This document shows, in pieces, positions 25,419 through 49,684 of a DNA stretch of 64,000 nucleotides; within the stretch, counting starts at the first letter, position 1, and each line of letters opens with the position of its first letter. Source of the DNA: an uncultured Methanosarcinales archaeon (GTDB taxonomy: Archaea; Nanobdellota; Nanobdellia; Woesearchaeales; JAGVZT01); assembly GCA_964419615.1 (NCBI GenBank), contig CAYQPU010000002.1:16096-80095 (forward strand), in the 5' to 3' direction. A model generated the notes under the pieces. It had not been told where the DNA came from and did not search any database. It worked only from the letters and a program-made list of their open reading frames with translations. Made by a program: the position numbers and the translations under genes.

Positions 25419-28400
25419 ATGCGTTTGAATAAATACTTATTAATAGCATTAATTCTACTTATACTAACTTACACAGCCTATGCAGATACAGTATGTTGCC
25501 AATATGATGTACCAGGCGGAGGTACAAGCTGGGTTTCAGCAGATTGTGCGGACAGCAGTTGCTCATATGATTTAACATGCAGTGTGGAAGGGGATTATTC
25601 ATTCCAAGTATATAATGTTGAAGCAGCACAAGCACAGGCAACAACACCTGCCTCATGTAATTGCATATCATCCAACATCGGAGGAGGATATGGCTGCTGC
25701 CAGCCAGGTGGAGGTACTGATTGTGTTGATGCAGGTGGATCATGTCAAAGTGCAGGAGCCTGTAGTGGGACTTACTTATGTGGAGGACAAGGAGGATCAA
25801 CACCTAATGATTGGGAAGATTGCTCAAACACACCTGCAACAGATACAGATGCAGGTGACACTCCAGGAACAGCTGGGACATGCTCAGTTTACTCATCTTG
25901 TTCTGGTGGAGCATGTACAAGTTCAGACTATGCAGATACTTGTGGTTCAACAACTAGCTTAACCGAATATTATAATAGTGCTAATACCTGCTTGTCTAGA
26001 TCATACCTTTGTGTAGATTTTGAACAAGTAGCAACAGGAGGAACATCAAATGATCCATCAACAACTTCAACTTGTATAGGTGGTGTTTCAGCAGAGTGCT
26101 CATCAAACACTTTTTCAACCATTAATCAGGTGAATAACACAGATTTTTGTGTTGATCCTTCTGACTGTTATTTTAATGGAGGTGCAGGTGGGGGAAATTG
26201 TGATTTCAGGGAATATTATTCAGAAGATTCAGCTGATGCCTGCACGGGAATTGATGCTTGCACAGGAACGCAAGATTATGATCCAGACACTAATTCTAAT
26301 ACTTGTAATGAATGTGTTGGTGCAACTAAATGGGCATTAAATGGTGAAGTAGCTCAATTAGATTGCTGTGGTGATGACTCGGGGGAAAACTATCTTTATT
26401 ATGAACAATATTCAGCAGATGGTTGTAATGATATCACAAATGAAGACTGCGTTGGTTTAGATGATGATGGTACTGACAATAGTTGTTGTGATACTTCAAC
26501 AGATTGTGTTTTGGGAAATTCCTGTTATAATGCAGGATTTGGTCCAGTTGACTTGGATGGGGACGGAGTTGATGGTGAATTTTGCAGATCAGGTGGAAAC
26601 ACCTGGCAAGACTGTGATGCAAGTGAAGGATTCTGTACTAGTTCCAGTTGTGGCTCAAAAACCTGGATTACAGGAGGAGAATCGTCTCAATTTGGGGAAT
26701 ATGACTCTGGTTCTGAAACAGAATGTTGTGAAGATGATTCAGGAGAGTATTTTCTTGAAAATTTAAATGTTTCAACACAAGCATGTTGTGGGGAATCAAA
26801 CAATTGTGTTGATAATGCAAGCCAATGTATTAATGATGGTCAACCAGGATTTTTAATATCTGATGGTGGGAGAGATCAAATAGCTGTGTGTAATGGTGGG
26901 ACTCCTCCAACATATGAAGAATGTGATGATTCTGAATCTTTATGTAATGTATGTGCGGGTGTAGGCTCAACCACTTGGTCAACTGCAGGTGAAACTTGTG
27001 GTGAATATGGAAGTTCAGCAGATGGAGGAGATGGCATAACAGAATGTTGTGGTGATGATGCTATTGAATTTTATGTCACAACAGGTGTTGGGTCTGGAAG
27101 TTGCTGTGATGCAGCATCAGATTGTGTAGATTCTAACAATACATGTTTCACTGGAACTGAAATTTGCCAGGCTCCAACAAATCCTGCTCTATATGCAGAT
27201 GAGGACTGTGACGGAGAAACAGATTATGATAGTCAAGACGGATATATTGGTGATGCAAGCTGCCCAGTACAAATAATAAACATAGACCTTAATGAAACAA
27301 TAGCTCGGATTGGATCGCAATTTGAAGTTAATTGCACTGTAACTCCGGCTGGAGTAAACTCTGTGGATGTTCAAGTATCAAATGGTTCATGTAATTGGAG
27401 AAGTTGGGACTTATCAGCAGGAATTGCCACATTTGATTGTGTTCACACTTCATGCAGTGCAAGTACATCTGTGACTTGTACAGTCAACGCATCAAGAAGT
27501 ACTCAAACAGGAATTGATCAAGCTGATGCAATAACTATATGCTCCTTAGATGGAGGAGATTGCCTAGGTTGTCCTTGCTGTGTAGACTTTGCATGTGATG
27601 ATGACTATAACAAATGTGTCAGTTGTAGAGTGGATAGTGTTCAAGATAGACCACCTATTTTTTATGGAGGCGGATTATGTGAAGATGCCTCACCATTAGT
27701 TGATTGCTATGCTAATTCATCTTGTGATGAGCTTGACACATTAGAATGTATTGACATAAGTACAATTTGTAATAATACCTGTCAGCCAGCAAACAGGGAT
27801 CTATCTGAAGAATTTTGCATTGATAACACTGGCTGCGTGCAGTTGAACTGGAATTTAACTGGAGAAAAAGCAGCGCATGGAGAATATGAAGGTTCTCAAC
27901 CAACACCTGAATGCTGTGGGGATGATGCAGGTGAAACATTTAGATACAGAGAAATTGCAAGCTACTCTGGTTCAAATCAAGTGGTAGATTCATATAGTAT
28001 TTCAACTGATATAAAAGATTCGGCATGTTGCAATGATGTAACAGATTGTGTTTTTGAAGGAGTTTGCTATAGAGACTTTGATGAAGTCTATACAATCAAC
28101 ATAGGTTCAGCTGAAAAATCAACCTGTGAAGGATTAAGCAAACATGATTGTAGAAAAATAGAATCCTGCTTTTGGAGAAATGATGCATGCGTTTACAATG
28201 TAAGACTTGATTCCACATATGGTACAATTGTATACAATGATGTAAATAAAGATGGATATGACGAAGTATGTGATCCTGGTGAATGGATGGTTGGAGATCT
28301 TAATTCATCATTTTACGGATTTGTATACAATGTTACACTTGGCGGGATTCAAGGAGCAACAGTGCAGATATCAGGTGTATCTGAATTATCTAATGCAACA

Positions 28401-28880
28401 TATCACTTCAATGGTACCACAGATATAAACGGCTATTATGATATTGAAGTATTTGGAAACGGAACTTATGATATAATTGTAACAAAATCATTATTTGGTA
28501 CTGATACAGAAATCAACAGATATATTGGAATGTTTGACGACATAGAAATAAACTTTACATTAATGGATGCACATGAACAATGCGAACCGGATTGTACATA
28601 TCAAGGAGATAGCATATGTCACACTGATTGCAATTCTAAATTGGGGTGCAGCTTTTTTGATAACAATACATTATCACTATGTGCAGGAAAACAAAGTGGA
28701 TGGACAGTTGATTACAATGGCAGCCATGCAGTAGATTGTTGTGAAAGTCAACCATATGAAAGTAAAGAACTTAAAATAATTGATACAGACACAACACTCA
28801 TCTCAGATCTTGTGAGATTAGTAAGAGTTGTATTCTTTAAAGGTAAGCCAGTAAAGATGGTAATAGATGTGTTTAGGTAG
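25419..28880 (+). CDS. Large secreted Cys/Asp/Gly-rich surface protein with four CC(G/E)DD repeats and a carboxypeptidase-regulatory-like domain
   Basis: Signal peptide; repeats W...CC(G/E)DDxxE...CC...(D/N)CV; IQGATV...TTDINGYYDI beta-sandwich. Confidence 0.8.
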   Translation: MRLNKYLLIALILLILTYTAYADTVCCQYDVPGGGTSWVSADCADSSCSYDLTCSVEGDYSFQVYNVEAAQAQATTPASCNCISSNIGGGYGCCQPGGGTDCVDAGGSCQSAGACSGTYLCGGQGGSTPNDWEDCSNTPATDTDAGDTPGTAGTCSVYSSCSGGACTSSDYADTCGSTTSLTEYYNSANTCLSRSYLCVDFEQVATGGTSNDPSTTSTCIGGVSAECSSNTFSTINQVNNTDFCVDPSDCYFNGGAGGGNCDFREYYSEDSADACTGIDACTGTQDYDPDTNSNTCNECVGATKWALNGEVAQLDCCGDDSGENYLYYEQYSADGCNDITNEDCVGLDDDGTDNSCCDTSTDCVLGNSCYNAGFGPVDLDGDGVDGEFCRSGGNTWQDCDASEGFCTSSSCGSKTWITGGESSQFGEYDSGSETECCEDDSGEYFLENLNVSTQACCGESNNCVDNASQCINDGQPGFLISDGGRDQIAVCNGGTPPTYEECDDSESLCNVCAGVGSTTWSTAGETCGEYGSSADGGDGITECCGDDAIEFYVTTGVGSGSCCDAASDCVDSNNTCFTGTEICQAPTNPALYADEDCDGETDYDSQDGYIGDASCPVQIINIDLNETIARIGSQFEVNCTVTPAGVNSVDVQVSNGSCNWRSWDLSAGIATFDCVHTSCSASTSVTCTVNASRSTQTGIDQADAITICSLDGGDCLGCPCCVDFACDDDYNKCVSCRVDSVQDRPPIFYGGGLCEDASPLVDCYANSSCDELDTLECIDISTICNNTCQPANRDLSEEFCIDNTGCVQLNWNLTGEKAAHGEYEGSQPTPECCGDDAGETFRYREIASYSGSNQVVDSYSISTDIKDSACCNDVTDCVFEGVCYRDFDEVYTINIGSAEKSTCEGLSKHDCRKIESCFWRNDACVYNVRLDSTYGTIVYNDVNKDGYDEVCDPGEWMVGDLNSSFYGFVYNVTLGGIQGATVQISGVSELSNATYHFNGTTDINGYYDIEVFGNGTYDIIVTKSLFGTDTEINRYIGMFDDIEINFTLMDAHEQCEPDCTYQGDSICHTDCNSKLGCSFFDNNTLSLCAGKQSGWTVDYNGSHAVDCCESQPYESKELKIIDTDTTLISDLVRLVRVVFFKGKPVKMVIDVFR

Positions 28881-28899
28881 CTGATTCTTTCTGTGTTAA

Positions 28900-29049
28900 A
28901 TTAGTTACACCTTAGCCATCTGTGTGAGTGAGACCTAAATCATTACCAAAGTCAAAATGGAACAGTTAGTCAATATTCTAGCCAAATCAGGTAACTAACT
29001 CATAAAACAAATAACAAACTGGCTCACGAACTGGCTTGGTGTAACTAAT
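28900..29049 (+). ncRNA. Candidate structured RNA motif, copy 1
   Basis: 12-bp closing stem ATTAGTTACACC/GGTGTAACTAAT; conserved TGTGAGTGAGAC, GGAACAGTT and TAACAAACTGGCTCA blocks shared with 49487-49626. Confidence 0.6.
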
Positions 29050-29235
29050 CAGCTTTTGTAAACAAAACATTTAATAATGCACTCAGCTTACCTGTTCCTA
29101 TGAAGCACACAATTAACTTTAGATGTTGTTGTTAGAACTAGCTTCATTGATATTCTATTTTATTTTAAAAATAATAAATAATACTTTAATCACATACAGG
29201 AGGTAAACAAATGAAATATAAATTAACAACAAAGG

Positions 29236-29643
29236 GTGAGTATCCCTGCAGAAGCATACCAGCTTCTAAAAGTAAAAGAGCTCAAAGAGCATGAGCAAAT
29301 TAATAGAAAACACCATGTAAAAATCATTAAAGAGATACAGAAAAATAGATATGTCATACCAATTATTGTTGATTCAAAACATAAAATAATTCTTGATGGA
29401 CATCATAGATTTAATGCAATAAAAAGATTGGGCTACAAAGACATACCTGCTGTTATTGTTGATTATGAGAGTTCAGATGTGCAAGTTGCTTCTTGGAGAA
29501 ACAATATCATTGTAACAAAATCTGATGTAATTAGGAGAGGCTTGAATAAAGACTTGTATCCCCCAAAAACATCAAGACACACAATAAGGAATCTACCACA
29601 AATTAGGATACCATTAAAATTATTGGAGGTAACAAATGAATAA
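29236..29643 (+). CDS. ParB/Srx-fold protein resembling a compact free-serine kinase (SerK-like)
   Basis: HEQ, ILDGHHR and PPKTSRH motifs; overlaps the cysteine synthase start. Confidence 0.65.
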   Translation: MSIPAEAYQLLKVKELKEHEQINRKHHVKIIKEIQKNRYVIPIIVDSKHKIILDGHHRFNAIKRLGYKDIPAVIVDYESSDVQVASWRNNIIVTKSDVIRRGLNKDLYPPKTSRHTIRNLPQIRIPLKLLEVTNE

Positions 29644-34760: not shown

Positions 34761-35423
34761 ATGACAAAAACAAACATATTCTCAATATTATCATTAGTAT
34801 TTGCATTTTTGTTTTTTCCTTTAGGATTGATATTTGGAATAATTGCGTTAATTCAAATAAAAAAGACAGGTGAACAAGGAAAAGGGTCTGATGCCACAGG
34901 TATTGACAGTTGGCAGAGGAGCAGGCATTATGAGATGAGGATAGGAGAATCAAATATGCCTTACGCCAAAGCAGACATTATAGTTGATACAGATAACAAA
35001 ATGGTATATGGTCATGTCTTGAGAATAAAACCAAGACATGATGTGATTGGTGCAGAGAGTATTTTCAAACGTATGAAGTACAAGCACATACTTGTGCTTG
35101 GAGATAAAGGATATGACAGCGAACCTTTACATAGAGTAGCAGAGCAGGAAGGATTCCTGCTCTATGCTCCTCCTAGAGATAGCTCAAGGAAGTCTCCAAG
35201 AGGCAAGCACAGAAAACGTTGTGCAAGGTATCCTCCTGACGGGAAAGGGATGCGCAGCATTGTTGAATCTGTGATAAGAAGCTTAAAATCAAGATCTGTC
35301 TCTCTGAAATCACGACTGCATTACATGAAAAAAAGAGAATTTGCTTGGAAAATACTCTCATATAACATTGAACTTTTTGCGCAACTGATTAATCAGTTGC
35401 ACTGGCTGATAAATTCAGCTTAA
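34761..35423 (+). pseudogene. Chimeric ORF: DUF4190-like membrane N-terminus fused in frame to a 5'-truncated IS5-family DDE transposase
   Basis: FSILSLVFAFLFFPLGLIFGIIALIQIKKTGEQGKG, then DATG, GDKGYD, RSIVESV. Confidence 0.75.
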
Positions 35424-35444
35424 TAAATCTATTCTGGACAGAGC
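34887..35444 (+). mobile_element. IS5-family remnant (left end missing)
   Basis: DDE motifs; IR-like TTCTGGACAGAGC ending at 35444; no matching left IR seen. Confidence 0.65.
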
Positions 35445-35489
35445 AAATTTTTCTTAACTTTTATATACTCAAACAAATTAATCAACACT

Positions 35490-49443: not shown

Positions 49444-49486
49444 GCTAATTTAATTTACTTTATAAAACTTGCTTTTAGACAAGTTA

Positions 49487-49626
49487 GCTCCACCAGGCCG
49501 GTTCTTGAGCCAGTTTGTTAACACAAATGCAAATATAATTCAAACTTTCCCAAGTTATTAACAAACTGTTCCTTATTACTTTTCCCATGAACCTTAGTCT
49601 CACTCACATCTTGGCCTAGGTGGAGC
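49487..49626 (-). ncRNA. Candidate structured RNA motif, copy 2
   Basis: Closing stems GCTCCACC/GGTGGAGC and AGGCC/GGCCT; perfect CAGTTTGTTAA/TTAACAAACTG; same conserved blocks as 28900-29049. Confidence 0.6.
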
Positions 49627-49684
49627 AATCCCCACTAGATAATTCTACACAATCCTTTTATACAATCAAATATTAGCATCTTGC

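Follow-up and report, generated by a model that had tools for sequence, protein, structure and literature searches.

The locus and the two window copies

The window, that is, the whole 64,000-nt stretch of DNA analysed here, carries on its forward strand an ORF of 1153 aa that ends with a stop at 28880, and about 20 nt past this stop begins a structured non-coding segment, here called copy 1. The ORF (25419-28880, +) is Cys-rich and gives only a weak CarboxypepD_reg-like match. On the 3' side of copy 1 lie ParB_N-like, PALP (cysteine-synthase-like) and CysS genes, starting at about 29211-29236; this context agrees with the one given in the preliminary description of this DNA. About 160 nt separate the end of copy 1 from an ATG at 29211 with a Shine-Dalgarno (SD) signal, and the TATA-like box found between them (Table 1) may be the operon's own promoter. 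Within 29200-29240 the SD is a strong GGAGG, and the frame of the ATG at 29211 is shifted by one base relative to the ParB_N-like ORF and stops after 27 codons; that ORF is otherwise read from a GTG at 29236. The mismatch may reflect a frameshift, an assembly indel or a plain GTG start. No ORF of 30 aa or more is present in copy 1, the overlapping ones being only 21-27 aa long and antisense.

A second segment, copy 2, is on the minus strand. It is flanked by a divergent gene for an Lhr-type helicase and by a 167-aa gene whose family is unknown, and a gene on its own strand begins 39 nt downstream. Both segments stand where they had been placed before, and they are homologous, with 77% column identity in a pairwise alignment. 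Both were scored with a covariance model, R1, built from 24 genomic copies (Table 1). They also fold far better than shuffled sequences: the folding energy is -41.8 kcal/mol for copy 1 (z = -4.7) and -49.0 kcal/mol for copy 2 (z = -3.9), and in neither case was any of 200 shuffles equally stable.

Table 1. Positions of the features discussed in the text. Coordinates are those of the window unless a contig is named; counts out of 24 refer to the structure alignment, and counts out of 44 to copies of both species.
Feature	Position	Strand	Details
Copy 1, conserved core of the probable MITE family	28898..29052	+	CM R1 123 bits, E 2e-33; nhmmer 2e-28
Copy 1, P1 5' strand	28899..28910	+	pairs with 29039-29050; 12/12 pairs changed on both sides across copies
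Copy 1, P2 5' strand (AGCC)	28914..28917	+	pairs with 29033-29036 (GGCU); A-U here vs G-C in 22/24
Copy 1, P3 5' strand GU-GA-GUGAGA	28924..28933	+	pairs with 29022-29031 (GCUCAC-GA-AC)
Copy 1, tandem G·A in P3	28926-28927 / 29028-29029	+	GA/GA kept in 40/44 copies
Copy 1, unpaired 5' segment, P3 to P4	28935..28962	+	UC-GNRA-GA mini-hairpin in 19/44 copies; degenerate in copy 1
Copy 1, P4 5' strand	28963..28970	+	pairs with 29014-29021; 97.9% of cells paired; 3 pairs compensatory
Copy 1, apical region, variable among old copies	28971..29013	+	median identity 35% vs core 66%
TATA-like box TTTTAAAAATAA	29163..29174	+	~113 nt past copy 1, 37 nt before SD+ATG 29211; read from sequence
IS5-family DDE relic	34761-35423; right end TTCTGGACAGAGC at ~35432-35446	+	PF01609, 30 bits
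Copy 2, same family as copy 1	49480..49632	-	CM R1 119 bits
Copy 2, P1	49631-49620/49493-49482	-	
Copy 2, P2	49616-49613/49499-49496	-	
Copy 2, P3	49607-49598/49510-49501	-	
Copy 2, P4	49568-49561/49518-49511	-	
Sister IS5-family relic	L100:1415-2369, ~955 bp		TIR GGCTCTGTCC, internal TGA stop

Core fold and covariation

The structure alignment (A2) of 24 copies gives four helices, P1-P4. In the family consensus P1 has 12 bp, P2 is GGCC/GGCC, P3 is GU-GA-GNGAGA / GNCNNC-GA-AC, and P4, CAGUUUGY/RCAAACUG, closes the apical region. The outer stems were said to differ in sequence and still to pair in both window copies, and this is confirmed, as is the difference of the inner stem, AGCC/GGCU in copy 1 against GGCC/GGCC in copy 2. 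The pairing of CAGUU.GU with ACAAACUG is likewise present in both. For the GCUCA strand, the proposal is right in part: this 3' strand is paired, and family-wide covariation shows that the partner of GGCUCAC is the second GUGAGAC and not the first GUGAGU. With this register the conserved tandem G·A (GUGA/GAAC) is left below. P3 covaries at columns 34/137, 35/136 and 39/132, and its middle contains Watson-Crick GA/UC in some copies and a second tandem G·A in others.

Is the fold maintained? Standard pairs occupy 88.9% of cells, compared with 27-40% in controls whose partner columns were shifted by 1-3 positions; compensatory changes on both sides are seen in 21 of the 32 pairs, and none of 500 shuffles reached any of the observed pairing measures. 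Thus the earlier claim of a conserved structure holds. The GGCC, GUGA/GAAC and CAGUUUG motifs are invariant in all 24 copies. A conserved core together with a saturated apical region suggests selection on the fold. As to the strand, G·U outnumbers A·C by 44 to 20 overall and by 19 to 2 in P2 and P3, while in P1 alone the G·U and A·C mismatches are almost balanced. Folded as RNA, the given strand is more stable than its complement in 32 of 44 copies (Wilcoxon p = 9e-4). Because the young subfamily described below adds non-independent counts, the evidence for strand bias as a whole is moderate.

Copies in the genome of the window

The preliminary description knew a family of two copies. BLAST followed by iterated nhmmer to convergence on the genome that contains the window (1.48 Mb in 64 contigs, 99% complete) raises the number to 25, each of about 148 nt, on 20 contigs, and all 25 are intergenic. 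Their pairwise identity has a median of 55% with flanks and a maximum of 68%. The core keeps the identity given in Table 1, and the apical ~40 nt is near random for the AT-rich DNA of this genome. Divergent genes flank about 10 copies and convergent genes 2; between co-directional genes 7 are sense and 5 antisense, some of the antisense copies only 10-14 nt from both neighbouring genes. The 12 same-strand downstream genes examined have no shared theme, including acylphosphatase, tRNA splicing endonuclease, diphthamide synthase, PAC2, AglB/STT3, HAD, ABC1 kinase and HTH genes. TATA-like boxes are found upstream of many copies at variable distance, and also in the stretch from the element to the start codon that follows it.

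Few traces of element ends are left in this genome. The TIR word known from the sister species (see below) occurs in the flanks of 1/25 and 2/25 copies, against a background of 7.7%, and a k-mer search of the flanks for a genome-specific TIR returned only AT-rich, TATA-like words. Direct repeats show a weak excess, with 8-9/9 matches at 14 of 24 copies compared with 30% in the null. One copy on contig 9 has a 3' TIR, AAGTTGACTTTTCC, at the expected distance and a decayed TSD, which links the TIR-less copies to the TIR-bearing form. Neither window copy has a recognisable TIR, only the inner P1 repeat being kept; copy 1 has no TSD, and the flanks of copy 2 contain a possible decayed direct repeat, TTGTATAAA/TTGTCTAAA, a doubtful TSD. 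The MITE origin of the two window copies therefore rests on core homology. In a tree of the core, built on a short alignment with support values not assessed, copies of both species are intermixed and the window copies fall in separate branches. All 25 copies of this genome are ancient, with decayed TIRs and TSDs and a saturated apical region.

Distribution of the family

How far does the family extend? Apart from this genome, copies were found in Ca. Woesearchaeota SuakinDeep_MAG79_5, the one further species of the genus that was searched, here called the sister genome, which has about 20 full-length copies in addition to shorter and longer variants. A search with model R1 of 39 other genomes (6 from other genera of the family, 33 from other families of the order) yielded none under stricter filters. 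A strict core pattern run against 185,579 species representatives hit the sister genome only, apart from four single chance matches, and pattern scans of JGI metagenomes and IMG/VR gave hairpin-level chance matches only. As far as these searches reach, the family appears confined to one Woesearchaeota genus. We found no published account of MITEs from Woesearchaeota.

Mobility in the sister genome

A young subfamily of the sister genome, with 10 copies that are 81% identical over the full unit including the apical region, itself near-identical among them, shows the complete element. Its order is a TIR, GGGCAAAGTCAAC, a 9-nt linker, the core, a 5-nt linker and the inverted TIR, GTTGACTTTGCC; the complete unit is about 200 bp, with a 13-nt TIR and a core of about 150 nt. 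Direct repeats of 8-9 bp of flanking DNA surround at least 7 of the 10 young copies, such as AAGTTATAG, TTATTGAGA, GAGAACTTT and TGTAAAATA, and further GCGAAATAG, CTACAAAG and TTTAGAAT. A second subfamily of the same genome has a related TIR containing AAGTCAAG. Filled and empty sites can also be compared: three of the sister insertions occupy spacers of 272, 226 and 197 nt, and the orthologous gene pairs here are separated by 25, 12 and 48 nt. At the window copies the orthologous sister genes are cut off by contig ends, so this contrast covers other loci, and the same check of two other copies of this genome met a paralogue or no match.

Six of the 20 sister copies lie in the same intergenic region as a copy here. 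Two of these six have the opposite orientation, three are members of the young subfamily with TSDs, and in the core tree none groups as sister to its counterpart; same-site copies of the two species show no conservation of the apical region either. The differences in orientation, subfamily and place in the tree suggest repeated use of a few insertion-tolerant spacers.

Longer variants of 346 bp are extended by about 170 nt at the apical position (L066:1849-2195, L074:1663-2008 and L076:1920-2270) and could be either a longer precursor or the result of nested insertion. In a 474-bp sister copy (L063:1970-2443, in the sister genome C48:17969-18442) another repeat of about 100 nt is nested inside. 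This ~100-nt repeat family also stands alone at many sites in both genomes (among them G000 C5:28992-29093 and C53:2394-2477), and three sister contigs end within composites of the MITE and ~100-nt repeats.

Search for a transposase

If the unit is a DNA transposon, which enzyme moves it? Neither a TIR pattern scan nor contig-end extension found an autonomous element with TIR GGGCAAAGTCAAC in the two draft MAGs; the unpaired TIR matches all traced back to non-coding variants that were longer, nested or truncated. The IS256-type transposase (PF00872) had no match in either draft MAG. DDE genes (PF01609) are represented by one IS5-family relic per genome (Table 1), with a TIR, GGCTCTGTCC, that is unlike GGGCAAAGTCAAC. 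The two relics share their TIR type and appear defective. The window relic lacks its N-terminal part and is fused to a DUF4190-like membrane segment. Duplications of 9 bp are compatible with several DDE families, among them the IS903 group of IS5.

Comparison with known RNA classes

No known RNA class had been recognised by eye in the two segments, and Rfam 15 agrees. At gathering thresholds the whole window has no match; relaxing the cut-off to E<=10 still gives nothing for copy 1, and for copy 2 chance matches alone, of 11-20 bits against thresholds of 40-160. The classes covered include hammerhead, twister, pistol, hatchet, HEARO and T-box.

Several other candidates were considered and rejected. 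A hammerhead-like reading of GUGA...GAAC fails because only two helices meet there. Judged from sequence and alignment, the element is neither a tRNA or split tRNA, since its 3' part is without a T-arm and its P1/P2 junction is not bulge-helix-bulge, nor a K-turn (L7Ae-binding) motif: that motif has a tandem sheared G·A directly beside a 3-nt bulge and a canonical stem, while here two Watson-Crick pairs lie between the tandem GA/GA and a 5' bulge of 7-10 nt. The idea of a guide RNA is not favoured either, as apical regions match the genome elsewhere at chance level (12-15 nt), with the exception of one match. This is an exact 19-nt match (E = 1e-4) between the apical region of G000 C2:12436-12584 and an unrelated locus, C19:23578-23596, the sole one above chance among 24 apical regions.

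The elements and the few tRNA genes of the genome do not overlap. About 10 tRNA genes are detectable in the 99%-complete genome (ARAGORN, Rfam RF00005), none of them in the window. Several have long introns (49-84 nt) or non-canonical intron positions; examples are C26:14351-14505, C22:20306-20469 and C12:16611-16748.

Discussion

What is copy 1? We consider it probable that it is an old, immobile relic of a MITE family of one Woesearchaeota genus. The assignment follows from the sister subfamily, with its TIRs, ~9-bp TSDs, shared apical region and insertions at otherwise short spacers. MITEs are defined by TIRs, direct repeats, small size, the absence of a transposase and long stem-loops (PMC3184786). 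The family here is small and non-coding, multi-copy and dispersed, and it shows insertion polymorphism; a cognate autonomous IS with the same TIRs is not among the features seen in either draft MAG. The preliminary description had argued for a functional RNA rather than a MITE and had named an IS-end match as evidence to the contrary. It is such evidence, TIRs and TSDs, that the sister species provides, together with presence/absence insertions, and the exclusion of a MITE is not supported.

The following scenario would accommodate these observations. The full unit would consist of the 13-nt TIR, a short linker, the core of about 150 nt and the inverted TIR, with a target duplication of about 9 bp around it, and it would be moved in trans by a putative DDE-type transposase making staggered 9-bp cuts. 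After insertion the TIRs and TSDs would decay and the apical ~40 nt would saturate, the core persisting. The core of the given strand would fold, as RNA or as single-stranded DNA, into P1-P2-P3-P4 with the tandem G·A and a side hairpin, often with a GNRA loop. Selection would have acted on this fold, either because active master elements required it or because inserted copies were co-opted.

Then why is the core so well kept? In this genome TIRs, TSDs and the apical region are unrecognisable, while the core motifs are invariant and the stems covary, and this is not the picture of uniform neutral decay. A covarying internal fold is not needed by a DDE transposon, and its conservation is a point against the MITE reading. 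Either the fold differences arose in active master lineages that required the fold, or the inserted copies were themselves selected. It is in keeping with the second case that we raise, tentatively and as the less likely side, the possibility that about 110 nt of the core, made up of P2-P3 with its tandem G·A, the GNRA side hairpin and P4, form an undescribed module of RNA or single-stranded DNA, spread by a DNA transposon and now under purifying selection in all 25 immobile copies of this reduced DPANN genome. If true, this would be a domesticated multi-copy class of structured RNA, for example a protein-binding scaffold or a repressor of a lost transposase.

Another functional reading makes the family one of host-functional structured small RNAs, in which MITE copies were co-opted or an older RNA gene was captured between TIRs, each copy being transcribed alone and the P2-P3 core with tandem G·A and GNRA loop serving, for example, as a protein-binding scaffold. 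The contrast between core and apical region after loss of the TIR, the invariant motifs, and the strand-specific signs (G·U excess, stabler forward fold, GNRA loops and tandem G·A) would all suit it. So would the TATA-like boxes lying 30-50 nt upstream of many copies and the T-rich tracts after some of them, but the distance of these boxes varies, they are often those of divergent neighbour genes, and there is no clear enrichment of T-runs. The apical region is unconserved even between same-site copies, the range is a single genus, and the target of selection may have been the active master elements and not the inserted copies. We regard this reading as unlikely.

Far less probable is an RNA-mobilised or self-processing element, either ribozyme-bearing or a SINE-like retroelement, whose fold would be required when it is copied by way of RNA. 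Repeats often carry small ribozymes, and pairing selected in a core outside the TIRs, with strand asymmetry, is what such an element might show. But no Rfam ribozyme family matches, there is no poly-A or other 3' tail, the two-helix P2/P3 junction is unlike a hammerhead core, and TIRs with a fixed TSD of about 9 bp indicate DNA transposition of the cut-and-paste or copy-in type.

The least credible reading is a cis-regulatory leader or riboswitch (for Cys, Ser, SAM or a metal) of the ParB-like/cysteine synthase/CysS operon, which the position of copy 1 upstream of the operon on the same strand, and that of copy 2 before its own same-strand gene, had made attractive: a family that is mobile, that stands in both orientations, antisense or between convergent genes included, before unrelated genes within one genus, with TATA-like boxes between element and gene (at copy 1 an SD as well) and with no visible expression platform, leaves it without support.

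The MITE reading has some further bearing. It removes a false lead, a cysteine-sensing riboswitch at this DPANN locus, and documents a probable MITE family in Woesearchaeota. The pair of genomes is a natural test case, in which one species has a decaying and still recognisable burst and its sister has end-less fossils that keep a covarying fold. If the fold was selected after insertion, it would be a tractable case in which a very small genome acquired a structured RNA module from a mobile element.

How does the family compare with known systems? Like riboswitches and T-box-like leaders, it has a conserved structured core with internal loops and stands at times upstream of genes; unlike them, it has no fixed orientation, no coherence of gene function, no expression platform and no range past one genus. 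With the IS5 family it has in common a TSD of 9 bp and a TIR beginning with GGC, and IS5 relics exist in both genomes; the relics and the MITE differ in their TIRs, and any mobilisation by the relics would be hypothetical. The closest likeness is to prokaryotic MITEs. Those with hairpin-forming bodies, as here, include Correia/NEMIS of Neisseria, ERIC, RUP and Chunjie of Geobacter, the last with 9-bp direct repeats, and archaeal examples are found in Haloquadratum walsbyi (PMC3184786). Shared with them are the length of 150-200 bp, the non-coding, multi-copy and intergenic nature, presence or absence among related genomes and, as seen in the young sister subfamily, the TIRs and direct-repeat duplications. 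The family differs from them in that no cognate IS is found here, that its host is a DPANN archaeon, and that a plain palindrome does not describe its body: the 5' segment is asymmetric and bears a side hairpin, the inner helices covary, a tandem G·A is conserved, and old copies keep the core after the TIRs are lost.
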